From Pseudomonadota bacterium (GTDB lineage Bacteria; Pseudomonadota; Gammaproteobacteria; Burkholderiales; Rhodocyclaceae), in assembly GCA_018262285.1 (NCBI GenBank), contig JAGTRX010000096.1, positions 1 to 15,725 of the forward strand: a stretch of 15,725 nt of DNA. The letters are read 5' to 3'. A program made the translations under genes and the position numbers. The notes under the pieces are model-generated. The model did not search any database. It was not told where the DNA came from and was given only the letters and a program-made list of their open reading frames with translations. Positions 1,608-14,258 of the stretch are shown here, piece by piece. Position 1 is the stretch's first letter, and the number at the start of each line of letters is the position of its first letter.

Positions 1608-1844
1608 TTACAGCAACTTCTTGACCTCGGCGACTTTGGCCTGCATCGCCGGCGTCAGTTCGGAAGGTGTCAGTTTGCTGATAATGCTGGACAGCACGCG
1701 TTTTTCATTGGCATCGACAATGCCATCACGCAGGGCGATATCGACGATGGATTGCAGTTCGTCGGGCAGTAGCTTGCCGTCGTTGGTAAAGCAGTCGATG
1801 GAGCGGAAGCTCATTTCCAGATAATCACGGCTGTCTTTATTCAT
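1608..1844 (-). CDS. Small acidic protein of 78 aa, translationally coupled to the giant ATPase gene
   Basis: The ATG at 1844 is preceded by GGAG (AAAAAAGGAGAAACAAATG). The ATG overlaps the giant gene's stop as ATGAATAA. The product reads MNKDSRDYLEMSFRSIDCFTNDGKLLPDELQSIVDIALRDGIVDANEKRVL.... The longer 99-aa ORF start is out-of-context Pro-rich junk. Confidence 0.6.
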   Translation of the reverse strand: MNKDSRDYLEMSFRSIDCFTNDGKLLPDELQSIVDIALRDGIVDANEKRVLSSIISKLTPSELTPAMQAKVAEVKKLL

Positions 1845-4800
1845 TTGTTTCTCCTTTTTTCCTGGGTTTGGGTACGGATTGTTGGGCGGCGGCGGGCAGA
1901 CTGCCATCCAGTTTTTTCAGTTCTTTGGCGATTTCGCGCACCTGATCCCAGATGCTGTGGTCGAGGCGCAGCTTGTGATAGTTTGCAGTAACCAGCGGTG
2001 CGATGCCTTGTTCGTAGGTTTCGGCCATGCGTTTGACGGCAGCGGCGAGCGCTTCCGATTCCGGTACGGCAACGTTGACTTCGGTTTTCAGGCCAGACAG
2101 AGCCTTGCGCAAGGCCTTGAGTTCGCTTTCCCAGTCCGGGCCGGCGGGTGGCGGTGCAGGTGGCACTTTCTGCTGCTGCAGCATGGCATCGAGGGTAACG
2201 CTGATGTCGGCCAGCAGTTTGGCCACCTTGGTGGCGCCGTCGCCTTCGGCACCGCCGAATTTTTTCAGCCGCCGATAGTCGTCGCAGATGGTGGTCCAGC
2301 GTGCCTGTTCCTCGGCTGTCGGGCGGCCGATCAGCGCGGCCAGGCGCAGCAGATTTTCCTCGGCGCCTGCCGTCAGCGTCTGCGCCTCGCCGCGGTAGTG
2401 ATCACGCATTAGCGCGTCGAGGTCGTCAGCGTTCATCAGGGCATTGACCTTGGCCGCCAGCTTGGCCATGTTGCGGTAACTGCCCTGCAGCTTGAAGGGC
2501 GGCTCGGTGCGGTAGGCGTCGTCCTGCGCAGCCGAGGCGATGTAGGCGGCGTTGACCTTCAGCAGTACGTCGCGCACCTTGAACAGGCGCTGCAGGATGG
2601 CGGTCAATTCGTTCAGTTCGGCAGCGCTGTACTGGTATGAGAAGGCATCCATCGCCACTTCCTCGCCGGCAGCTACCCGCACCAGCAGGCCGACATCCTT
2701 GGGGTCGCGTGTCGCTAGTGGCATCAGCGCTGGGTTGGAGGTCAGGCTGTTTTCGAGGTAGGAGAGGGCGAACAGCGCTTCGCGGCCGGAAAGGACATCA
2801 CCGAGGTTGTAGATGTCGGCACGGTTGGCCAGCATGTCCGGAATCTTGAAGACTTCGCCCGATTCGGTGTACGGGTTGCCGGCCATGACCACAGCGAAGC
2901 GTTTGCCGCGCAGGTCATAGGTTTTCGGCTGGCCCTGCCAGACGCCTTCGATGCGGCGGGTGCCGTCGCACAGCGCGATGAATTTCTGCAGGAATTCCGG
3001 GTTGGTGTGCTGGATGTCGTCAAGATAGAGCATGACATTGTTGCCCATCGCCAGCCCGAGGTTTAGCTTTTCGAGTTCCTGCGCGGCGGCGCTGTGCGGT
3101 GCCTTGCCGGGGTCGAGGGCGGTGACTTCGTGGCCGAGGGCAGGGCAGTTGATGCGCACGAACACCAGCCCGAGACGGTCGGCTAGATATTCCATCAAGG
3201 TGGTCTTGCCGTAGCCCGGCGGCGAAATGAGCAGCAGCATGCCCATGCGGTCGGTGCGGCTGTTTTCGCCGGCGGTGCCGATCTGCTTGGCGAGGTTGTC
3301 GCCAACCAGCGGCAGGTAGACGTCGTTGATGAGCTGGTTGCGCACGAAGCTGGACAGTGGCTTGGCCTGGAACTGCTCCAGGTGCAGGCGGGCTTTTTCC
3401 TCTTCCAGCAGGCGCTGGCGCAGGGCCTGCCAGCGCTGGAAGCCGGGGACGATATTCTGGCAATGGGCCTGGAAGCGCTGGTGGAAGTCGTTGAGATTGA
3501 GCCACAGACCACCGTCGACCAGACGCGGATGCTCGCCGCGCAAGCCTTGCAGCTTGAGGCCGAGACGGGCGTTAAGGCGCTGGCGCGGCAGGTTGAGGGT
3601 GAGCAGGGCGGCGGCTTCGTCGATCCAGTCGGCTTGCTCGGGTTCTTGCTGTGCGACATAGGCGTGCATCCAGTCGCGGGCCAGACGCCAGCACACCAGC
3701 GGCACGCAGTCGGCCAGTTGCTCGCGCCAACTGCTCAGCTTGCCCTGACGCTCCAGCGTACGGGAAAAGCCGTCAGCCAGATCGAGGGCGGCGCCGCTGG
3801 CGATCCAGGTGGCGTTGCCGGCTGCCTTGTGGGCCAGTTCCTCGGCCAGATAGGCGGCGGCTTCGCCAGCCAGTTCGGGGCCGACGCCCCAGAGTTCGAG
3901 CAGGCCTTCGCGCTGCCCGAAGGTGAGCAGCCAAGCTTGCCATTTGGCAATCAGGGTCTGGCGTGCTTCTTCGCTGCCGAACAATTTGCGGATCTGGGCG
4001 GCACTGGCGGCCTGACGCTGCAGGTTGGGACGTTCGATGGCCGGCACGCCTTGCTGCCAGTAGAGCATGGCCAAAGCACGGGCACGCGGCCCGTAGCGCA
4101 GCAGCGCCGCTTCGGCTTCCATGCGCAGCAAGGCCTGCAGCAGCGTGGCAGCATCATGGTCGTGAACGCCTTTTTGGTAACCTTCCTGATAGCGCGGTGC
4201 CGCAAAGCTGCGCACCTGCGTAAGCAGGGCTTCGGTCAGAGATTCAGTTTCGCTTTCTGCCAGCATGGCTTGCAAGGCATTCCATTCTTCGCGATTGGCC
4301 AGCGCTGATTCGAGCATGCGGCCGGCCAGATATTCGGCGCGGTAGAGATTGGGGCTTTCTGACACCAGCGCCTGCGACCAGAAAGCGCGTAGCGGTTCGG
4401 TATCGGGATGCGACAGCGGTTGCAGGTAGTCGGTGCCGGTCAGGTGCCAGTTCAGCCCCTGTTCGCTCGGCACCATGGTCAGATCGAGCGCCTGTTTGCC
4501 GATGGTAAACGCGTGGCGGCCGAGGCGAATGGAGTTGCCATCTTCCGCCACCATGTCTCCACGGTCACGCACCAGACGCAGGGCCTGATCGCGGGCGGTC
4601 TTCAACTGGGTGTCGAGATCGTCGGCCAGCACCTGGGCGCCGATGCCGCGCAATTCCTCAATCAGGCTGCGGCATTTGGCGATCAGCGCGTCACCGGCAA
4701 AATAGGCGTGCACTTCGCTGACTTCGCGGAATCCCTGCACCCGGCGCGGCACGCCGGTGAGGATGCGTTTGGCCGATTCGGCCAGATTTTGCTGGCGGCG

Positions 4801-7007
4801 CTGGCGAACTTCCAGCAATTGCTGTTTGCGGGCGGCCAGCGCTTCGTAAACGGCTTCGCGCTTTTCGGCCAGATCGGCGGCAAAGCGCTCGTCCTCGCCG
4901 AAACGGCCTTCCAGTTCCTCGATTTGCGCCAGCAGGCGGGTTAGCGCGTCGTCGCACTGGTCGGGGGTATCGGTGCGTTCCAGGGCGCTTTCGACCGCCT
5001 GGCCGAAGAGCTTGAACTGGGCGCCAAATTCCGCCCCCAGTTCCTGGGTGGACAGGCTCTTGCGCCGGTTCTTGGCGGCAGCGCGCAGGCGATTGACTTC
5101 GGCATAGACCGTCGACACCTGTTCGAGGATGGTGGTGCGGGCAACAGCATCGCCACCAGGCAGGCCACCGACCAGCTCGTTCAACAGATCAAGTCCGGCG
5201 CCGGTCTGGTCGAGCGCCTTTAGTGCCGTATCAAGGGCGGCGGTCTGGCTGGCCTTGTCGATGTCGGCGGCGGTTTTGGCCAGCGCCTCGTGATAGGGCA
5301 CGAAGGCTTTTTCGGTACCGAGGAAGCCAAGCGCCTTTTCGCCGATGCGGGTCTGTTCCTCGCCCAGTTGCGCATCGAGGGTGGCGATGCGGGCGCTGTC
5401 GATGTAGCGCTGTTCCTTCAGCGCCAGCAGGTTGCCGCGCTGGCGGCGCAGACGATCAAGGGCATCGACGAAATCCTGCGGGTGTTGCCAGAGCTTGCTG
5501 GCGATGTCGGTGAGCAGGACGCGCTGGGCAGCTTCGGCCTGTTCGAGTTGGCGGGCAGCATCGCGGCGGATGGCAGCAACCTTGTCGAATTCGTCGAGCG
5601 TGGCGCGCGCCGTGTCGATGATGGTTTGCACCGCCTGATTGGCATGGCCGGATTCATCGCAGTCCAGCCAGTAATAGGCGTCAAGAATGCGGCCACAGAG
5701 GCGGATGAGGTCTTCGTAAACGACGCGGGTGGCGACCTGTTCGCGCACGGCGCGGCAGATTTCCATCATGTCGGCAACGCCGCGCACCAGTTCGGCATTG
5801 CCGATGCGGCCAAAGAAACTGTGCTGATCGACCTGCTGATTGGCGTGGTCGTCCTCGCAGAACGGTGTCTGCCACAACTGCATCGGGTGATTGCGCGTCG
5901 GGTCGCTGTTTGCGCGTAGAAGACGTAGAGCACATCTTCGCCGTTGGGCGAGCGCACCGAGCGCTTGAAGCGAAAGCCGGCATCGGTATCGGCGGGCATG
6001 TCGAAGCGCTTGTTTTCGCCGGATTGCAGGTAATAGCCACCGGGGAAAATGATGCCGTGGTCTTCCGGCAATTGCACGCAGGAGCGACCGATGGCGTCGA
6101 TGCGGGCGACCTGCTGGGTGCGGTGGTTGTAGACCAGATAGCGGTAGTCGTCTTCGCGGTAAGGCTTGATCTTGAGCAGGATGAGCGAGCCGAGTTTGAC
6201 GTACTGGATATCGGCATCCACCAGCGCCTGATTCTGGTCGACCACCGGCTCGCTGTAGATGCCCAGTCCGCTTTCGGTATTGTTCTCGATCTTGACGGTG
6301 AGATCGCCGCCCACCGTTTCGACGAAGATGGTGTCGAGAATATTGACGTGCGGACACTTGCCATTGACGTGCTCGTCGCGGCCGGTGACGACCCATTCGA
6401 AATCGTGCGTCGGCGGCAGGGCAATGTCGCGCTCGCCGCGATTGTCGATGTATTTGACGCTGCCGTCGTTTTCAATCGACCAGCGGAAAACACGCAGATC
6501 GTTGACGGTTTGGCCGATCTGGAAGGCGGCCAGCAGTTTCTGTTGATTGACGCGTAGCCTTACCAGGCTGGCGTGCTTGTAGTAGGTATAGAGTTCGCGG
6601 AAATCGAGGACGAAGCGTGGGTCGGTCAGGAAGCTATTAGCCGGGTCGGCGGGCACCAGTTCATCGGCGCCCTCCGCCTCGTTGAGGCGATAGAGGCCGA
6701 AGACATCGGCAACCTGAATGTCTTTGCGCAGGCCGATAAAGACGTTGTAGCCGAACAGCAGGGTATCGCCGACGCGGACGATGTCGCGGGCCACGCAGTT
6801 GTTTTCGGTGCGGGCTCGCAGGCGGGCCTTGAGGCGCAGGTCGGACTTGCCGAAGGCGCCAATGCGCGCTTCGTTCAATGCCTGCACCTTGCCGACCAGC
6901 GCTTCGCCGTGCTGCATCAGGCGGCGTTTCAGCAGATCGTAACTGCCGCCCTCGGCGATGGCGGCGTCGATGTTGTTGGTGTCGTCAGTGGATACAGTGG
7001 TGTTCAT
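1837..7007 (-). CDS. Giant (~1,720 aa) multidomain protein with a MoxR/dynein-type AAA_5 ATPase. It is disrupted by an apparent 1-nt frameshift near 5895-5910, and the six-frame track splits it into ORFs 5766-7007 and 1837-6396.
   Basis: N-terminal ~370 aa are mixed and beta-rich (MNTTVSTDD...GEDVLYVFYAQ). A long alpha-helical/coiled-coil middle follows. Walker A reads LLLISPPGYGKTT. Walker B/sensor reads VMLYLDDIQHTNPEFLQKF...FAVVMAGNPYTESGEVFKIPDMLANRADI, as in AAA_5 (LLLDEINRA...ATMNP). A C-terminal helical tail ends in KPRKKGETNE. The in-frame protein sense switches from frame A to frame B between YVFYAQ and NHPMQLWQTPFCEDD. Confidence 0.75.
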
Positions 7008-7048: not shown

Positions 7049-7076
7049 AAGCCCGGCCGGAGCCGGGCTTTTGCCT
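7049..7076. other. Stable 9-bp GC stem-loop between the flotillin and giant-ATPase genes
   Basis: AAGCCCGGC-CGGA-GCCGGGCTT at 7049-7070, followed on the + strand by TTTGCCTTT. In the sense (minus) orientation no U-tract follows it. Confidence 0.4.
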
Positions 7077-9176
7077 TTAGCTATGCTTCGTAATCAGTTT
7101 TTGCAGGGCGGCGCGTTGCTCTTCGCTGCCGTCTTTCATCACCTTGGCGATCAGTGCGGAAACGCCCAGATTCTGCATTTCCGGTGCTGAGCTGCCGAGG
7201 GCGCCGAGCAGTTCCTTCAGATCGCCGACCATATCGCGTTCACCGGTCAGATGATCCTTCAAGGCCACCTGCAGGGTGTTGCTGCGTGCAATGGCGCCAT
7301 CGATGCCCTTGCCAACCGCCAGCGCATTGACGAAGCGTTCGAAATAGTCGCCCTGGCCGCCGACGATGTCGATGTTGGCATGGCCAAGCGCCGAGGACAG
7401 CACGCCGGCCTGTTCCTTGGCGACGGCGACCTGCGATTCGATGCCCTTCATGGTTTCGACGTGCACGTTCTGAACGCGCATGCGGTATTCCTCGTGCGCC
7501 CGTGTTTCCGGCGCCATGGTGCGCATGGCGTCGAATTTTTCCTTGAGACCGCGCGCTTCGGCCTGCATGCGGGCTTCGATGGCGCTGGCTTCGGCATTGC
7601 CCTGCTTGGCAACGGCCTCGGCGTCGGCAGTCTTGATGTGCACGGTAGCCAGACCGAGTTGCTCGTTACCCTGGGCTTCCGCTTCCAGTTTCTTCAGCAG
7701 GGCTTCGGCTTCGGCAGCGCCCAGCTTGGCGACGGCTTCGGCGTGGGCGATCTTGACGCGGGCGTCGACCAGGCCGGCTTTTTCGCTGGCGTCGGCATTG
7801 GCCAGCTGCACTTTGGCCTGTGCCAGACCGGGCGCGGCGGTAAAGGCTTCGACCCCCTCGGCTTCGCGCTTCTTGGCTTCGGAATCTTTCTCGGCCGCTT
7901 TCAGGCGAGCTTCAGCCAACACCAGATTCTGGCCGGCCTGATGCTTGGCACTGCGTTCGTTGGCCTCGGCCGCCTTCACCTGCAAGACCAGATCGTGTTC
8001 GGCCTGACCCTCGGCTTCGATGACAGACGCCTTGCGATTGCGGTCGGCTTCGGCCACTTTGCGCACTTCCTTGATGGCTTCTTCCTGCTCGGCGACAGTA
8101 CGCTCGACCACGACGCGCTCTCGGATGACGTCGGCGATGGCTTTCTTCTGCACTTCGACTGATTTGTCCTTGTCGATGGTCTGCAGCGTCACTTCCTTTT
8201 CGCGATCAACGATTTCGAGCTGACGGGCGCGGATGACACGCTCTTCCTCGATGGCCACAGCGCGCATACGGTTATTCTCGGCGACCTGCTTCTCGCGCTG
8301 AACATTTTCCTGCTGCACGAGAATGGCCTGTTCAGTCTGCAAGCGTGCCATTTCGGACTTGCCGAATTCTTCGGCCTGGATGCGCTTGGCTTCAGCCTGT
8401 TCGCGCGCCTGCACGGAGGCGATTTCACGTTGCTGGCGGGCCTGGGCTTCAGCCTGCTGGCGTTCGAGTTCGTAGACGGTTTCCTGCGTCTCGACGTCCT
8501 TCTTCTTGATCTGCGCCTGTTCGTCACGCTTCCACTGGTTGGTGCGGATATGTTCGGCGGCGGTCAGTTCGGTGATCTTACGGATGCCTTGGGCATCGAG
8601 AATATTGCTCGGATCAAGATGTTCAAGTTGCGTCTGTTCCAGATAGTCGATGGCGGCGTCTTCCAGCACGTAACCGGAGAGGTTGTCGCCGATCTGCTTG
8701 ATGATTTCATCGCGGAAACGGTCGCGTTCCTGATACAGCTCTTCGAAATCCATCAGCTTGCCGGCGGTTTTCAGGGCTTCCGAGAACTTGGCGGAGAATA
8801 ATTCTTCCAGGGTTTCCGGATGCGAGGCGCGCTCGCAACCGATGGTCTGCGCTACCTTCAGCACGTCCTGCTCGGTCTTGTTGACGTGCACGAAGAACGT
8901 GACCTCGATATCGGCACGGATATTGTCTTTGCAGATCAGGCCATCCTTGCCGGTGCGCTTGATAACAATGGTTTTGATGGAGATGTCCATCATTTCCATC
9001 TTGTGGATGACCGGATAGACCATGCCGCCAGTGAAAGTGACTTCCGGCGCGTCACGCAGGGTGTTGTTGATCATGGCGTGACCCTGTTCCACCTTGTGGT
9101 AGAACTTCGAGAACAGGGCAAAGATGCCAAAGATCAAAATGACTATGGCGACAACAGGGATAAGTAGTAATTCCAT
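7077..9176 (-). CDS. Flotillin-family protein (SPFH/band-7 domain, YqiK-like), 699 aa
   Basis: N-terminal TM helix (LLLIPVVAIVILIFGIFALF), an SPFH domain, then a long Ala/Glu/Lys-rich EA-repeat coiled-coil typical of flotillins. GGGAG RBS upstream. Sits immediately downstream of an NfeD-like gene, as in yqiJK/yuaF-floT. Confidence 0.9.
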   Translation of the reverse strand: MELLLIPVVAIVILIFGIFALFSKFYHKVEQGHAMINNTLRDAPEVTFTGGMVYPVIHKMEMMDISIKTIVIKRTGKDGLICKDNIRADIEVTFFVHVNKTEQDVLKVAQTIGCERASHPETLEELFSAKFSEALKTAGKLMDFEELYQERDRFRDEIIKQIGDNLSGYVLEDAAIDYLEQTQLEHLDPSNILDAQGIRKITELTAAEHIRTNQWKRDEQAQIKKKDVETQETVYELERQQAEAQARQQREIASVQAREQAEAKRIQAEEFGKSEMARLQTEQAILVQQENVQREKQVAENNRMRAVAIEEERVIRARQLEIVDREKEVTLQTIDKDKSVEVQKKAIADVIRERVVVERTVAEQEEAIKEVRKVAEADRNRKASVIEAEGQAEHDLVLQVKAAEANERSAKHQAGQNLVLAEARLKAAEKDSEAKKREAEGVEAFTAAPGLAQAKVQLANADASEKAGLVDARVKIAHAEAVAKLGAAEAEALLKKLEAEAQGNEQLGLATVHIKTADAEAVAKQGNAEASAIEARMQAEARGLKEKFDAMRTMAPETRAHEEYRMRVQNVHVETMKGIESQVAVAKEQAGVLSSALGHANIDIVGGQGDYFERFVNALAVGKGIDGAIARSNTLQVALKDHLTGERDMVGDLKELLGALGSSAPEMQNLGVSALIAKVMKDGSEEQRAALQKLITKHS

Positions 9177-9256: not shown

Positions 9257-9907
9257 TTACCCTTCTTCGTCGGGTTCGACCAGATAGCGCCGGGTTTGCT
9301 GATCGTAGGATACGACCGAAGTCATCGAGCCCTTATGCAGAGTGTTGGGTTCTTTGGCGGCAATCTTGATGTTGTAAGAGGCGCCGCGACTGGCGACTTC
9401 GCCCTGGCCGAAGTTTTCGGTAACCTTCAGCGTGGTGACGCGGCACTGCAACCCGATCAGGCTTTCGTTGGAAGGAGCTGGATGGGCAACGAACAGTCCG
9501 CGTAGCGGCCGCGAGAACAGGGCTGTGAAGAAAATGGCCGGGATCAGCGCCAGTACCAGCACCAGCAGGCCGATCAGGGTGCGGGTCAGACCGCCGGGCA
9601 GCAGCGGCAGTAGATAGCGGGTGACCAGGGCAGTAGTCGTCCAGCCGAAAATGGCGAGCAGGGTCAGCACCAGTGACAACGGGACGCCGGTCAGACTAAA
9701 GGTGACAGCGTAATGATCACCTTCGGCATGCGCGTCGCCATGAAGATCGCCATGGACTTCCGGGCCGCCATGATCGAAATCAAGGCCGTGATGGCTGACA
9801 TCGACCAGGCCGACGATGCCCAGCAGCCAGTACAGCAGCGCTACGCAGAGCAACACCGAATAAACGATGGTCGGCCATTCGGTGAGAATGTTGAGCAGGT
9901 TGTTCAT
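9257..9907 (-). CDS. NfeD/YqiJ-like inner-membrane protein (TM helices plus a C-terminal OB-fold-like soluble domain), the flotillin partner
   Basis: Two to three hydrophobic helices, a His/Asp-rich loop, and a C-terminal LQCRVTTLKV...GEVASRGASYNIKIAAKE beta domain typical of NfeD short forms. GGGAGG RBS. Lies directly upstream of the flotillin gene. Confidence 0.8.
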   Translation of the reverse strand: MNNLLNILTEWPTIVYSVLLCVALLYWLLGIVGLVDVSHHGLDFDHGGPEVHGDLHGDAHAEGDHYAVTFSLTGVPLSLVLTLLAIFGWTTTALVTRYLLPLLPGGLTRTLIGLLVLVLALIPAIFFTALFSRPLRGLFVAHPAPSNESLIGLQCRVTTLKVTENFGQGEVASRGASYNIKIAAKEPNTLHKGSMTSVVSYDQQTRRYLVEPDEEG

Positions 9908-9954
9908 TTGCCTCCCGGCATTATTATTTTATGCGGCGAAGATTATGGCAGCTT

Positions 9955-10647
9955 TTAGCGGTTTTCACATCCCGCCAGTTTTATCCACAATTGCTCGAAG
10001 TGCCGGGAAAAACAGGCAATCAGTTCTGGGTCATCGGTGATGATCAGATTTTCCTCGTTGTAACGGCTGGCGCTACGGGTCCAGTTGAAGCTGCCGTTGA
10101 GTAGCCAGCGAGCGTCGAAAATGGCGTACTTGTGATGCATGTGCGCTTCGGTCTGGTCGACAACGACAGAAATGCCGGCCTGTCGCAGCGTTTCAACGTC
10201 GCTGCCACTGTCTGATGCCTTGTCGTTGTCGGTAATGAAGCGCAAGGCAACGCCGCGCCGGTGTGCCGCCAGAATGGCATCGCGGATGCGGTCGTCTGAC
10301 AGCGTAAAGACACAGACATCGACGCTTTTTTGAACAGCCTGAAAGCGCTGGCAGATGGTGTTTTGGCAGGCGTCGCCGGGAGAAAAGAAGACCTCCGAGT
10401 GAACTGGATTTCCGCGTGCGCTATCGAGCGCCCGCGCCACGCCTTCCAGCCAGCGTACCAGGCTGGCGGCTTCCAGCCCGGCAGCCAGCCGTGTCTGCAC
10501 CATTTCAAAAGCGCGGTTGCGTACCCGGCGCAAGCCTTCCTCCGGCGCACCGTGGCTACGCAGCAGATTGACCAGTTCGCGGCGCTCGTCGTCGGACAGA
10601 CGCAGGTCAGCGATGCTGGCTTCAAGGTGGTCGAGGATCGTTTGCAT
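9955..10647 (-). CDS. Phospholipase-D superfamily protein with a single HKD motif (Nuc/endonuclease-like) and an N-terminal ~100-aa helical domain
   Basis: HxKx4D motif HMHHKYAIFD followed by GSFNWTRSASRYNEEN (the GSxN...N.E signature). Single-HKD proteins act as dimers (Nuc, BfiI-type nucleases). The ATG at 10647 has no strong SD. Confidence 0.8.
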   Translation of the reverse strand: MQTILDHLEASIADLRLSDDERRELVNLLRSHGAPEEGLRRVRNRAFEMVQTRLAAGLEAASLVRWLEGVARALDSARGNPVHSEVFFSPGDACQNTICQRFQAVQKSVDVCVFTLSDDRIRDAILAAHRRGVALRFITDNDKASDSGSDVETLRQAGISVVVDQTEAHMHHKYAIFDARWLLNGSFNWTRSASRYNEENLIITDDPELIACFSRHFEQLWIKLAGCENR

Positions 10648-10804
10648 GTTATAGGTACGCCCGGCGTTGCGAACAGGGCTATTGTGCGGTACGCCAGCTT
10701 GATCCGTAAATCAAAATTGGCTTCGCCTCGCGCCTTGTATCATCGCGCTTTCCGGAGTAAGGTCGCTTGTCCGCTCTGCGACAACAGATGCTCCAAATAG
10801 ACGC
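10648..10804. promoter_or_regulatory. Divergent intergenic region holding promoters for the PLD-flotillin cluster (-) and the VanZ-like gene (+)
   Basis: 157-bp non-coding gap between divergent starts. Candidate sigma70 elements TTGGCT (10716-10721), a 15-nt spacer, then TGTATCAT (10735-10742) on the + strand. The minus-strand promoter was not resolved. Confidence 0.25.
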
Positions 10805-11887
10805 ATGAATACCAAAGGCCCCATCCTGCTCGCTCGCTACCTGGCTCTTGCCTGTCTGGGGCTCATCATCTATGCCAGCCTGCACCCATTTTCTGGCTGG
10901 CGCATCAGCGGCATTTCGCCTCTCGCTTTTCTCGAAGGCGGCTGGCCGCGTTACTGGACTGTTTTCGATTTGGTTGTCAACGCGCTGGCCTATCTTCCGC
11001 TCGGCTTCCTTTTTACTTTGGCGCTGGCGCGAGTTCCTGGTCGCTTCAGCGCCGCTGTGCTGGCGACGCTGGCCGCTGCGGCGGTCAGTCTGGGCATGGA
11101 ATGCCTGCAAGTTTATTTGCCGAGCCGCGTACCTTCCAATCTTGATCTCGTCTGCAACAGCCTGGGCGGCCTGATCGGGGCTGTCCTGGCCTATCGTGCC
11201 GGCCCGCGTTTTTTCCCGCACCTGATAGAGTGGCAGCACCGGCTGTTGGCACCCTTGCCGCATGCCGAGTTGGGTTTGACCCTGCTCGGCCTCTGGCTGC
11301 TCATCCCGCTTTCGCCGGAAATCCTGCTCTTCGGCGCCGGCGATGTGCGCGAAGTTTTTGATCTGGCTGGTGCCATGCCGTTTTCACCCGGTAGCAGCGC
11401 ACCCATGGAAACCGCTGTAATTGCCTGCAATACTGTTGCCGTCGGTCTGCTGGTGCGCTGGCTCGCTGCCAACACCCGTCTGGCTTACTCATTGGCGCCA
11501 ATTTTCCTTGCCCTTGGCCTGGCGGTTCGCTCGCTCGCCGCTGCCGTTCTTGTTTCGCCGGAACAGGCTTTTTCCTGGTGGACGCCGCCAGTTCAGAACG
11601 GTTTGCTGGCAGGCGGCCTGTTCCTGTTGCCAGCGCTATTCCTGCCGGCTGGTCTGCGCATCGTGCTGGCGGCGCTGGCGCTGATGTGCGGCACCGTGCT
11701 GGTCAATATCACGCCGCCCAACCCCTATTCCATCGCCGCTCTGGCCTCCTGGCGGCAGGGTCACTTTCTCAATTTCAACGGCCTGACCCGGCTGATTTCA
11801 ATTCTCTGGCCTTTCCTGGTCTTGCCTTTCCTGATGTTCTCCAATCGCAGGACGACCGAGAACCAAGCTACGGTTTTGCCGGATTAG
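10805..11887 (+). CDS. VanZ-like family membrane protein with a polytopic C-terminal extension
   Basis: VanZ signature FDLVVNALAYLPLGF (D..N...Y.PLG) and multiple TM helices across 360 aa. Confidence 0.75.
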   Translation: MNTKGPILLARYLALACLGLIIYASLHPFSGWRISGISPLAFLEGGWPRYWTVFDLVVNALAYLPLGFLFTLALARVPGRFSAAVLATLAAAAVSLGMECLQVYLPSRVPSNLDLVCNSLGGLIGAVLAYRAGPRFFPHLIEWQHRLLAPLPHAELGLTLLGLWLLIPLSPEILLFGAGDVREVFDLAGAMPFSPGSSAPMETAVIACNTVAVGLLVRWLAANTRLAYSLAPIFLALGLAVRSLAAAVLVSPEQAFSWWTPPVQNGLLAGGLFLLPALFLPAGLRIVLAALALMCGTVLVNITPPNPYSIAALASWRQGHFLNFNGLTRLISILWPFLVLPFLMFSNRRTTENQATVLPD

Positions 11888-11892
11888 GGCGC

Positions 11893-12267
11893 TTACTTGA
11901 GCGAAGCAAACGCTTCCTCCCAATGCTGCCCATCGAACGACTCTATCTCCGGTTGTTCACGTTGAAAATCAAAGTTATCGAGCGTGCGTACATTGACGGT
12001 GTATTGCTCCGGTGCTGCCCGGGGGCGTGAGAAGGTGTGAATGCCGCAGACTTTGCAGAAATGATGTTTGGCGATCTTGCTGCCGAATTGATAGGTTCCA
12101 AGTTGCGACTCGTCGGATAGGAGACGAAAATTCTCCGCCGTCACACGATGATGAAGGACGCCTTTTTTTGTGCAGATGGAGCAATTGCACTCGGTGACGC
12201 GATTGATGACGGCATTGATTTCATAGCGAACCGCACCGCAATGACAACTACCCAAATATAAAGTCAT
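11893..12267 (-). CDS. GFA-family (CENP-V/glutathione-dependent formaldehyde-activating-like) zinc-binding protein
   Basis: Conserved cysteine constellation GSCHCGAVRY...CNCSIC...HHFCKVCG. The upstream GAGGGGGG RBS overlaps the cobB stop. Confidence 0.85.
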   Translation of the reverse strand: MTLYLGSCHCGAVRYEINAVINRVTECNCSICTKKGVLHHRVTAENFRLLSDESQLGTYQFGSKIAKHHFCKVCGIHTFSRPRAAPEQYTVNVRTLDNFDFQREQPEIESFDGQHWEEAFASLK

Positions 12268-12274
12268 ACCCCCC

Positions 12275-13027
12275 TCACAATCTGGCCATCAAGGCCGTTA
12301 GCGCATTTGCCGCGCCCAGCGGCAACTTGTAGTCCACATAATCGGAAACCGTCGTCTGCCCTGGATTGATTTCCACTGTCGGAATACCGGCGCGAGCCGC
12401 CCAGACAACGGGCTGGGCGATGTAGGGAAAGACGCTGGTGGTGCCGACCGAAAAGACCAGATCGAAACCCTCCTCCAGTTCGTCGTAAAAACGCTCCATT
12501 GCTTCCTGCGGCAGGGTTTCTCCGAAGAGGACGACTTCCGGCCGCATGACGGCGCCGCAGGCCGGACACTTGGGCGGAATGCTCCGGCCTTCCAGACTCT
12601 CGATCTGTTCGCGCAAGCCGCAGGCGGTGCACAAGAGGCGGTGCAGGTCGCCGTGGATTTCAATGACATTGCGGCTACCCGCCGCCTGATGCAGACCATC
12701 GATGTTCTGGGTAAAGACCAGCACCGAGGCGAATTCCTCTTCAAGTTTAGCAATGGCGGCGTGCGCCGCATTAGGCCCGGCGCCCCGGCAGTTGGCTTCG
12801 ATCTGCGCCAGGTATTTCCAGGTAATTTCGGGATGCCGCCGCAGCATTTCGCCGGACAAGGCGTCCTCGATACTGTAGCCATCTTCAGTCAGATTGCCTT
12901 CGTACAGGCCGCCGATGCCGCGATAGGTGGGCAGGCCGGAATCGGCAGAAATGCCGGCGCCGGTGATGAAGAGAATACGGCGCGCTGTCGCCAGATGTTC
13001 GGCAACCGCGTCCAATAGGTTTTCCAT
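12275..13027 (-). CDS. cobB: NAD-dependent protein deacylase, Sir2 family (CobB-type sirtuin)
   Basis: GAGISADSGLPTYRG NAD-binding motif, QNIDGLH catalytic His, and a Zn-ribbon CTACG...CPACG. GGGGAG RBS 5 nt upstream of the ATG at 13027. Confidence 0.9.
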   Translation of the reverse strand: MENLLDAVAEHLATARRILFITGAGISADSGLPTYRGIGGLYEGNLTEDGYSIEDALSGEMLRRHPEITWKYLAQIEANCRGAGPNAAHAAIAKLEEEFASVLVFTQNIDGLHQAAGSRNVIEIHGDLHRLLCTACGLREQIESLEGRSIPPKCPACGAVMRPEVVLFGETLPQEAMERFYDELEEGFDLVFSVGTTSVFPYIAQPVVWAARAGIPTVEINPGQTTVSDYVDYKLPLGAANALTALMARL

Positions 13028-13040
13028 GTCACTCCCCTTT

Positions 13041-14258
13041 CTATGGCGCCAGCTCCTTCGGCAATAGCACCCACATCTTTCCGGACTGTTTCATCCGTCC
13101 TGCTTCCTCGCCAGCCTTGGCACCAAATCCCCAGAAAAAGTCGGCGCGAACGACGCCCTTGATGGCGCCACCAGTGTCCTGCGCCAGCATCAGGCGATTC
13201 AGCGGCTGGCTGGAATTGGGGCGGGTGGTGGCGAGAAAGACCGGGGCGCCGAGAGGAATAGCGCGCGGATCGACGGCTAGGCTGCGCTCTGCCGTCAGCG
13301 GCACACCGAGCGCACCGAGCGGGCCATCGTCGGAGGCCGGCAGTTCGCGGAAAAAGACATAACTCGGATTGGCGTTGAGCACCTCCTGCAACTTGCCGGG
13401 ATTGGCGCGCGCCCAGGCCTGAATGCCCTGCATTGAGGCTTCGCCCGCTTTCAGTTCGCCGCGCTCGATCAGCACCCGACCAATGGATTGATAGGGGTGG
13501 CCGTTCTGGTCGGCGTAGCCGAGCCGCACCAACTTGCCATCCGGCAATTTGACCCGGCCGGAACCTTGCACCTGCAGGAAAAAGAGTTCAACCTGATCCT
13601 CGACCCAGAGTAGCGGTGTCCCCAAACGCGCCCCCCGGTTTTCCTCAATGTCACGCCGGGCGTAGTAAGGCACTACCTTGTTGCCGACCAGCCGGCCACG
13701 CAAACGCATGTGCCGCAATTCCGGCAGAACTTCACTCAAATCAATGGTCAGCAGATCGTCCGGCACGCCATAAACCGGCACCTTGGCCAACTTGCCGGGC
13801 GTGCGACTGCCTTTCAGGAGCGGTTCGTAATAGCCGGTGATGAGGCCTTCGGTTTTGCCATCGGCGGCGGTCGCTGCAAAGGGCTGAAAATTGCCTTCAA
13901 AAAAACGGCGCACGGCGGCAGAACTTTTGCTATCTACCCCGGCAGCTTCGGCGCAAACCTTTTTCCAGGTAGGTGCCTTAACCGTCAGCACTCGACAGGA
14001 TTGCAAAAAAGCCGGCCAGGCAGCCCGCACATCGTCTTCCTCCCAACCCGGCAAGTCCTTCCAGTCTGCCACTTGCAGAGGCTTGGACGCTGGCTGCGCC
14101 AAGTCGACGCCAGGACACTTTGGACAGGGCGGACAGTTTGCGGGCGCGGGCTCATGTACCGTCAAGGACTGGCAGGCAGACAAGCTGACAGCCAGCAACA
14201 AAACAGCAAGCAGCCTGCGTTGAAACAAGTTTTTCGGCTCCAATTGGCTTTTCTCCAC
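13041..14258 (-). CDS. mltA: Membrane-bound lytic murein transglycosylase A (MltA) lipoprotein
   Basis: Lipobox LAVSLSAC, MltA core GYYEPLLKGSR, 3D-domain signature DTGGAIKG..RADFFWGFG. The start is uncertain: GTG at 14258 per the ORF track, or a TTG 15-45 nt downstream after GGAG. Confidence 0.85.
   Translation of the reverse strand: MEKSQLEPKNLFQRRLLAVLLLAVSLSACQSLTVHEPAPANCPPCPKCPGVDLAQPASKPLQVADWKDLPGWEEDDVRAAWPAFLQSCRVLTVKAPTWKKVCAEAAGVDSKSSAAVRRFFEGNFQPFAATAADGKTEGLITGYYEPLLKGSRTPGKLAKVPVYGVPDDLLTIDLSEVLPELRHMRLRGRLVGNKVVPYYARRDIEENRGARLGTPLLWVEDQVELFFLQVQGSGRVKLPDGKLVRLGYADQNGHPYQSIGRVLIERGELKAGEASMQGIQAWARANPGKLQEVLNANPSYVFFRELPASDDGPLGALGVPLTAERSLAVDPRAIPLGAPVFLATTRPNSSQPLNRLMLAQDTGGAIKGVVRADFFWGFGAKAGEEAGRMKQSGKMWVLLPKELAP

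Follow-up and report, generated by a model that had tools for sequence, protein, structure and literature searches.

A PLD6/Zucchini-like single-HKD phosphodiesterase encoded with an NfeD-flotillin-AAA+ gene cluster in a Rhodocyclaceae bacterium, a candidate member of a membrane-stress operon

Much work has been devoted to the flotillins, NfeD proteins and PspA of bacteria, but little is known of the enzymes that act with them. A 15,725-nucleotide (nt) stretch of DNA from a bacterium of the Rhodocyclaceae (positions 1 to 15,725 of contig JAGTRX010000096.1, GenBank assembly GCA_018262285.1), here called the window, encodes on its minus strand a 230-amino acid (aa) protein of the phospholipase D (PLD) superfamily and, next to it, a short NfeD protein, a YqiK-type flotillin and a giant AAA+ ATPase. 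By its sequence, the PLD is a cytoplasmic phosphodiesterase with one HKD motif per chain and an intact catalytic site, and we put the probability that it belongs to a membrane-stress operon at about 85%. The gene association itself is already in the literature: the window shows, in a changed gene order and without PspA, an operon known from comparative genomics and in part from work on Pseudomonas aeruginosa, and what it adds is this rearranged example together with its anatomy. New here are the PLD6/Zucchini affinity of the PLD, its N-terminal four-helix domain and the stop/start coupling of the AAA+ and PLD genes. Also new are a measure of the linkage (64%), with the PLD as an optional member, and model-based structural evidence for an NfeD protein that Pfam does not see.

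The open reading frame (ORF) of the PLD runs on the minus strand from an ATG at 10647 to a TAA ending at 9955 (9955–10647 including the stop), whereas the plus-strand reading of this interval is full of stops. The original prediction had given the interval exactly, and the strand is the minus one. The peptide HMHHKYAIFD forms residues 169–178 and, together with residues 185–200, GSFNWTRSASRYNEEN, completes the HxK(x)4D(x)6GSxN signature. As read directly from the sequence, the active-site signature H171-x-K173-x4-D178-x6-G185-S186-x-N188 lies at 10084–10137 on the minus strand, with the codons of H171 at 10135–10137, K173 at 10129–10131 and D178 at 10114–10116. A supporting glutamate, E199, is encoded downstream of the signature at 10051–10053, and its spacing from the serine presumably equals that in Nuc. 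All seven residues (H171, K173, D178, G185, S186, N188 and E199) were invariant in an alignment of 29 homologues. The Pfam family PLDc_2 matched residues 98–221 with an E value of 1.4e-30 and 106 bits against a cut-off of 27, which places the HKD signature, judged by its sequence, far beyond chance. Neither a signal peptide nor a transmembrane (TM) segment was found in the protein. The AlphaFold2 (AF2) model, with a mean pLDDT of 86.7 and a pTM of 0.67, showed a canonical PLD alpha/beta domain after a set of N-terminal helices. The catalytic domain, residues 84–230 (9958–10398, minus strand), is of the minimal Nuc/Zucchini type as delimited by the Pfam match, the identity to PLD6 and the TM-score to Nuc, and it is acidic family-wide, with a median isoelectric point (pI) of 5.9.

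The helices that precede the catalytic domain make up an N-terminal four-helix domain of residues 1–83 (10399–10647, minus strand), which was recognised from the AF2 model and from its conservation among homologues. The helices span residues 2–12, 19–31, 36–55 and 60–77. The domain is kept in every homologue examined, including the P. aeruginosa PLD that is 46% identical to the one in the window, and positions D14, L17, E21, R43, N44, A46, F47, W66, L67 and V70 are invariant. The helical extension that had been pointed out earlier is thus real, conserved and helical in the model, but it measures about 83 residues and not about 100. The four-helix domain is specific to this PLD family and is assigned to no known domain; Pfam returned only sub-threshold TerB, EAD1 and Dioxygenase_N hits, each of them for 3 of the 15 members and with best E values of about 1e-3 to 1e-2. 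That it might be an effector-associated domain, with a partner copy in the AAA+ protein, was considered and rejected, as a hidden Markov model of the domain, run against all ORFs of about 90 loci, detected it nowhere else. The domain also showed no similarity to the ~110-aa protein of the operon described below.

The family of the PLD was placed by a sequence search of the PDB and by Foldseek with the AF2 model. The top PDB sequence matches were human and mouse PLD6/MitoPLD/Zucchini, named “mitochondrial cardiolipin hydrolase” (E = 3.3e-29 and 5.2e-27), followed by Drosophila Zucchini (~3e-15), the plasmid endonuclease Nuc (1.5e-10) and Helicobacter pylori NucT (5e-6). The core of human PLD6 was 43.8% identical to the window PLD over 112 aa. 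Foldseek was led by 4ggk (1e-13), 6ehi (3e-12) and 1byr (1e-11), which are Zucchini, NucT and Nuc, each with a probability of 1.00, and the model matched Nuc (1byr) with a TM-score of 0.85 and a root-mean-square deviation of 1.8 Å. The complete signature and these matches agree with the single-HKD, Nuc-like PLD that had been proposed from the sequence. The NCBIfam models all scored below their cut-offs, with NucT reaching at best 56.6 bits against 211, DrmC class I 34.4 against 133 and DpdK 33.1 against 100. A grouping with cardiolipin or phosphatidylserine synthases, which the original prediction had named as an adverse outcome, was not observed: ClsB scored 15.4 bits against a cut-off of 281, and the PLD did not cluster with the two-HKD synthases. 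The window PLD therefore belongs not with the two-HKD lipid synthases but to a distinct bacterial family in the Nuc/NucT/Zucchini branch, of which PLD6 is the nearest relative.

The family is large and chromosomal. A HMMER scan of 1.84 billion representatives of 50%-identity clusters with the catalytic domain gave 462 clusters at E ≤ 1e-30, and many of these proteins are 225–245 aa long with the catalytic domain at about 88–228, that is, with the architecture of the window PLD. In a plasmid collection the family was seen only on Vibrio and Photobacterium replicons of 1.7–2.1 Mb (46–49% identity), while the classical plasmid Nuc genes were about 28% identical to the window PLD and the phage matches covered the catalytic domain only. 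The family was absent from the true plasmids and phages in these searches, which otherwise returned distant Nuc-like genes.

The linkage of the PLD to its neighbours was followed in a scan of one genome per species, which gave 573 loci with relatives; the best 80 were taken with 10-kb flanks and searched by tblastn with the window proteins, and 75 of them could be classified, the remaining five being too short. The NfeD-like, flotillin and DUF3686/AAA+ genes adjoin the PLD gene on one strand in 48 of these 75 loci (64%). All 48 have the order NfeD-like, flotillin, AAA+, PLD, and in the majority the PLD gene begins within the last 4 nt or on the last nt of the AAA+ gene, or immediately after it, an arrangement that at the level of gene sequence is a classic signature of translational coupling. 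In 32 of the 48, the NfeD-like gene is preceded by genes for DUF2170 (YjfI, CesT/Tir-like), PspA/IM30 (Pfam E = 3.5e-33) and a protein of about 110 aa. The linked state was found in Burkholderiales, Rhodocyclales, Vibrionaceae, Limnobaculum and P. aeruginosa, and so in both beta- and gammaproteobacteria. A functional linkage with NfeD and flotillin had been suspected from the window alone; the co-conservation check supports it, and orthologues without flotillin neighbours are the minority. The PLD heads the cluster in the window as had been described, but elsewhere it is the tail gene, and not one of the 80 related loci had the PLD in front. A tblastn search of the 15.7-kb window found no PspA, DUF2170 or ~110-aa gene. 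The adjacency of the same families in the window despite the changed order argues for selection on proximity and against coincidence.

Linked and unlinked members were interleaved in a neighbour-joining tree of the PLDs. Wholly unlinked clades were those of Lysobacterales, Myxococcaceae and one Rhodocyclaceae clade, and no other conserved neighbour was found at the unlinked loci. A large upstream ORF in Lysobacterales encodes an unrelated beta-propeller protein with bacterial TSP3 repeats. The PLD is an optional cluster member: it is present in the cluster of two Pseudomonas genomes, whereas no PLD lies upstream in a relative that shares 90% identity with the window in the NfeD-like protein. 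The ~110-aa protein (L002:908-1240 and 32 other loci) is highly conserved, with a mean column identity of 75%; its gene always stands between PspA and the NfeD-like gene in full operons, and it gave no significant Pfam match.

An operon of this kind has been published. Ravi et al (mSystems 2024, PMC11237479; preprint 2020) described a PspA-associated flotillin/NfeD/AAA+/PLD operon that includes a “phospholipase D (HKD) hydrolase”, and noted that abbreviated operons without the PspA dyad are more widespread. The window has the YqiK-type flotillin, the short NfeD of YqiJ/YuaF type and the giant AAA+ protein of that operon, the N-terminal beta-propeller/coiled-coil region of the last being assigned through its DUF3686/DUF7902 Pfam matches, and it lacks the CesT/Tir-like (DUF2170)-PspA dyad. 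The orthologous locus of P. aeruginosa is the biofilm-associated cluster bac, PA3732-PA3729. A mutant of its PspA-like gene PA3731 had defects in biofilm, swarming, rhamnolipid and virulence, and the protein was induced by osmotic shock (PMC2587700). PaFlo3 (PA14_16180) is the flotillin of the cluster, paired with PA14_16160, which carries the annotation “short NfeD”; a paFlo3 deletion cost the strain no more than about 20% of its biofilm, and among pseudomonads the locus has a patchy distribution (PMC13086221). In the literature we found nothing on the PLD and the AAA+ protein of the cluster themselves.

A working scheme for the PLD can be put together from these results. Two PLD chains would pair to form one active site, following the rule of single-HKD families (PMC5714352), and H171 would act as the nucleophile through a phospho-histidine intermediate. 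The tight coupling of the PLD and AAA+ genes suggests that the two proteins act together, and from this gene arrangement they probably form a complex. The N-terminal domain may dock the rather acidic catalytic dimer on an AAA+/flotillin/PspA assembly, or gate it there, with the inner face of the cytoplasmic membrane as the likely site of action. The substrate would be one of the anionic phospholipids of the membrane, either cardiolipin or phosphatidylglycerol. By analogy with the activity reported for MitoPLD on mitochondria, its conversion to phosphatidic acid may locally alter curvature and charge and so aid PspA/flotillin-dependent membrane repair or remodelling. We regard the chances of a membrane phospholipid as substrate as evenly balanced, a nucleic acid as a lesser but serious candidate, and something else, such as other phosphodiesters, as rather improbable.

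The lipid is favoured because all operon partners organise membranes and because the nearest characterised homologue is PLD6/MitoPLD, which has been reported to produce phosphatidic acid from cardiolipin on the mitochondrial surface (PMC10418416). It is also favoured because the catalytic domain is acidic, unlike those of Nuc and NucT. These two enzymes are secreted or periplasmic and basic. With the pI taken as a proxy for the charge of the groove, an acidic catalytic domain would not favour a non-specific nuclease. The absence of the Zucchini-type insertion from the window PLD points the same way, as do the lack of the family on true plasmids and phages, the lack of a match to any defence model and the housekeeping genes around the cluster.

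Several observations weigh against this view, some against membership in the operon and others against a lipid substrate. The cluster is absent around the PLD in 27 of the 75 classifiable loci, and PLD-less clusters occur in Colwellia (L084), Psychrobacter (L085), a PspA-containing metagenomic operon (L091) and a degraded cluster (L093). The minimal single-HKD enzymes Nuc, NucT, Zucchini and BfiI are nucleases, and several members of the present family are named “nuclease” by NCBI. Purified Zucchini reportedly cut single-stranded RNA and had no cardiolipin hydrolase activity, as is said of the structural work of 2012. In P. aeruginosa a YaeQ gene follows the PLD gene. Finally, the single-HKD subfamily has been described as endonucleases with a charged, elongated groove and not the deep hydrophobic pocket of lipid PLDs (PMC5714352).

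These points lead to the strongest alternative, which we regard as tentative but credible. The PLD would still be an operon member, but would work as a Zucchini/NucT-like endonuclease dimer for single-stranded RNA or DNA. The AAA+/flotillin complex would keep this dimer at the membrane and control it, so that it could, for instance, break down RNA or DNA appearing where the membrane is damaged. The Foldseek leaders and the PDB sequence matches, being the nuclease-type PLDs Zucchini, NucT and Nuc, fit such an enzyme, as do the best NCBIfam matches, which are the NucT nuclease models albeit far below cut-off, and the charged-groove description of the subfamily (PMC5714352). On the other side, none of the operon partners has a nucleic-acid-related domain and all of them organise membranes, and the catalytic domain is acidic. 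The insertion of about 24 residues that the window PLD lacks is presumably the RNA-binding element of Zucchini. YaeQ, which we take to have a nuclease fold, adjoins or is fused with the P. aeruginosa orthologue, but this link is limited to Pseudomonas and one other locus.

The YaeQ arrangement was looked at separately. In one P. aeruginosa assembly (L083:15259-16596) the PLD ORF reads into a YaeQ domain to give 445 aa, and the linker resembles translated intergenic sequence. In another Pseudomonas assembly PLD and YaeQ are two separate adjacent genes. Outside Pseudomonas, YaeQ was near the PLD at one locus only (L066), on the opposite strand. YaeQ is, we assume, classed with the PD-(D/E)XK nucleases, and the fusion was set aside as evidence for a nuclease, since the 445-aa ORF looks like read-through of adjacent genes.

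A second alternative, which we consider quite unlikely, is an anti-phage or abortive-infection module in which the giant AAA+ protein senses infection or membrane perturbation and unleashes a PLD nuclease. PLD-like nucleases with NTPases recur in defence, for example in Mokosh and Azaca (bioRxiv 10.1101/2025.07.10.664194), the patchy PaFlo3 locus is suggestive of horizontal transfer in Pseudomonas (PMC13086221), and defence-like genes are found near the Psychrobacter and Colwellia clusters. PADLOC gave weak matches to MkoC, DpdK and DrmC as well, but these reflect generic PLD or P-loop similarity (E ~1e-8), with no system or partner match, and the DrmC and DpdK family models stayed far below cut-off (34 bits against 133 and 33 against 100). 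Moreover, the AAA+/flotillin/NfeD core commonly occurs without the nuclease, the family is not found on plasmids or phages, and the phenotypes reported for P. aeruginosa have to do with biofilm, swarming, osmotic shock and virulence (PMC2587700). The earlier parallel with defence-island nucleases finds no counterpart in the window, where the cluster is flanked by housekeeping genes and by no defence island. The weakest alternative, that a stand-alone housekeeping PLD gene lies incidentally upstream of an NfeD-flotillin-AAA+ operon, is highly improbable: it could draw on the three closest relatives with readable context (62–63% identity), which stand alone in unrelated housekeeping neighbourhoods, on the relative with the 90%-identical NfeD-like protein, on the unique PLD-first order, on the weak ribosome-binding site of the PLD gene and on a promoter-like match of chance frequency before the NfeD-like gene, but the same families adjoin in 48 other loci of two proteobacterial classes with overlapping or abutting stops and starts, a chance co-oriented adjacency 47 nt apart is very unlikely, and no terminator lies between the PLD and NfeD-like genes.

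The PLD stop and the start of the NfeD-like gene are separated by a spacer of 47 nt (9908–9954, minus strand), which carries a GGGAGG ribosome-binding site at 9911–9916 and in which a terminator scan found no terminator-like site. The original prediction was right about the co-orientation of the two downstream genes and gave the gap as 48 bp. The first of these genes (9257–9907, minus strand) encodes a membrane protein of 216 aa, which on its predicted structure is a short NfeD of YqiJ/YuaF type. Its AF2 model (pLDDT 78.8) has N-terminal TM helices followed by a five-stranded C-terminal OB fold. The top four Foldseek matches in the PDB were 3wwv (Pyrococcus horikoshii 1510-C), 2k5h (MTH693), 2k14 (Bacillus subtilis YuaF) and 2exd (PH0471); three of the four are labelled as C-terminal domains of NfeD or stomatin operon partners, and for 2k5h the family is unstated. 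The protein is 33% identical to the P. aeruginosa partner (E = 6e-26). The similarity of the family to E. coli YqiJ is marginal, with a BLASTP E value of 0.15 and an hhalign E value of 0.0033 at 9.8% probability.

The second gene (7077–9176, minus strand) encodes a YqiK-type flotillin of 699 aa with a TM segment, an SPFH domain and a long Glu/Ala-rich coiled coil. BLASTP matched it to E. coli YqiK with an E value of 4e-39 and 27% identity over 441 aa, from the TM/SPFH region, and it is 52% identical to the 688-aa PaFlo3/PA3729 of P. aeruginosa. Both neighbours had been named correctly from the sequence, and it is the AF2/Foldseek result for the NfeD and the BLASTP match for the flotillin that now support the names. 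Searches of Pfam, NCBIfam and PDB sequences returned nothing for the 699-aa and 216-aa proteins, Band_7 and Flot included. Pfam-A is blind to the flotillin/NfeD subfamily of the window and of P. aeruginosa (L083:7108-9851), while it recognises YqiK and YqiJ of E. coli in the usual way; a survey of SPFH and NfeD proteins that relies on domain models would therefore overlook the entire subfamily.

The third gene (1837–7007, minus strand) encodes a giant ATPase, 1763 aa when intact, with Pfam matches to DUF3686 (5e-151), DUF7902 (2e-24) and AAA/AAA_5 (~3e-7). In the window, 121 bp are missing at about 5912–5914, in the DUF3686 part, and the resulting frameshift leaves two overlapping ORFs at 5766–7007 and 1837–6396. 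A second public assembly of this sequence (L081; 99.8–99.9% identical) contains the 121 bp and has the ATPase as one intact gene; the gap in the window is either a strain-level pseudogene or an assembly error. Relatives of the giant ATPase are called “DNA repair ATPase” by NCBI. An experimental basis for this name was not found; a literature search for “DUF3686” returned no paper, and a PDB sequence search with the ATPase gave nothing meaningful. The flotillin and AAA+ genes are 69 nt apart, and this stretch contains a perfect GC-rich palindromic hairpin at 7049–7070, AAGCCCGGC-CGGA-GCCGGGCTT, which may serve as an attenuator within the operon or affect RNA stability. A 78-aa ORF at 1608–1844 on the minus strand overlaps the AAA+ stop; it is a gene call in the ENA assembly and has no family match.

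On the other side of the PLD gene, an intergenic region of 157 bp (10648–10804), identified from the ORF map and the sequence, separates it from a divergent VanZ-family gene and is presumed to be the promoter region of the operon. No promoter match above chance was found in it. A sigma-54 promoter, as proposed for bac of P. aeruginosa, was rejected because consensus matches occurred at chance (82 found, 86 expected), and the sigma-70 and terminator scans were likewise at chance level. The upstream flank (10805–14258) encodes, from the PLD outwards, the divergent 360-aa VanZ-family membrane protein, GFA, a CobB-type SIR2 deacetylase and MltA; these are ordinary housekeeping genes, as are DUF815 and NUDIX elsewhere in the window.

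Some of the PLD-less clusters have neighbours of their own. A few kb downstream, the Psychrobacter cluster (L085:18519-21242) is followed by PRTase-CE and ORC/CDC6-like genes and the Colwellia cluster (L084:19818-20549) by a HEPN gene; these defence-like neighbours may be a sign that defence islands are at times found next to the cluster. In the degraded cluster (L093:7050-8694), a Y1_Tnp transposase and DUF2281/PIN genes are inserted between the flotillin fragments and the DUF3686 gene.

The operon couples flotillin, NfeD and PspA to a giant AAA+ protein and, optionally, to a PLD that is about 44% identical to human PLD6. Knowing the substrate of the PLD would give a membrane-stress module, whose bac version affects biofilm and virulence, a biochemical output, and would bear on the old cardiolipin-versus-RNA dispute over MitoPLD/Zucchini. 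A further-reaching proposal, which we consider doubtful, is that the PLD family is the prokaryotic counterpart, and possibly the source, of MitoPLD/Zucchini, and that it hydrolyses cardiolipin or phosphatidylglycerol for membrane repair by PspA (ESCRT-III-like), flotillin and the AAA+ protein. If this were true, PLD6 would have inherited its disputed membrane-lipid activity and have gained its role as a piRNA nuclease only afterwards, and the bacterial operon would offer a tractable system for the lipid-versus-RNA question.

Compared with known systems, the closest operon is bac of P. aeruginosa, which has the same four families. Identities to the window proteins are 33% for the NfeD-like protein, 52% for the flotillin and 46% for the PLD, and the domain architecture of the giant ATPase is equal in both. 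Unlike in bac, the PLD gene of the window comes first and not last, the module of DUF2170, PspA and the 110-aa protein is absent, and the AAA+ gene is interrupted in the assembly. The defence proteins DrmC of DISARM, DpdK of Dpd and MkoC of Mokosh show generic PLD-fold similarity to the window PLD, but no score comes near the cut-off of its family. For DrmC class I the alignment covers PLD residues 17–220 and so spans most of the N-terminal extension. The partners of these systems, which we take to be helicases, methylases and Dpd modification genes, were not found among the window proteins scanned. ClsA, ClsB, ClsC and PssA have the superfamily and the catalytic motif in common with the window PLD, but they carry two HKD motifs in about 410–490 aa, compared with one in 230 aa, and PssA structures came far down the Foldseek list. 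Nuc of a conjugative plasmid (1byr) and NucT of H. pylori (6ehi) have the same fold and single-HKD architecture at about 22–28% identity; unlike them, the window PLD has no signal peptide, is acidic, carries an extra N-terminal domain and is chromosomal.

PLD6/MitoPLD/Zucchini (4ggj, 4ggk, 9lkx, 4gel) is the best match among solved structures in both sequence and fold. The two proteins are alike in having one HKD per chain, the HxKx4Dx6GSxN signature and a minimal catalytic domain of about 145 aa. PLD6 has an N-terminal TM anchor at about residues 10–32 (PMC10418416), whereas the window PLD has a soluble, hydrophilic four-helix domain in its place. The window PLD also lacks an insertion of about 24 residues between the first strand and the first helix, the flanking blocks being 26 residues apart and not 50 as in PLD6 (PMC10418416). 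The blocks measured were EVFFSPG to DVCVFTLSD in the window PLD and VLFFPS to ELCLFAFSS in PLD6, and there is no Cys/His cluster between the two blocks of the window PLD. The PLD6 segment without a counterpart is, we assume, the zinc-finger-like RNA-binding element of Zucchini. Both proteins are tied to a membrane system, and the choice between lipid and nucleic acid as substrate is contested for both; the window PLD is a bacterial, cytoplasmic and operon-encoded protein, and PLD6 is an animal enzyme of the mitochondrial outer membrane.

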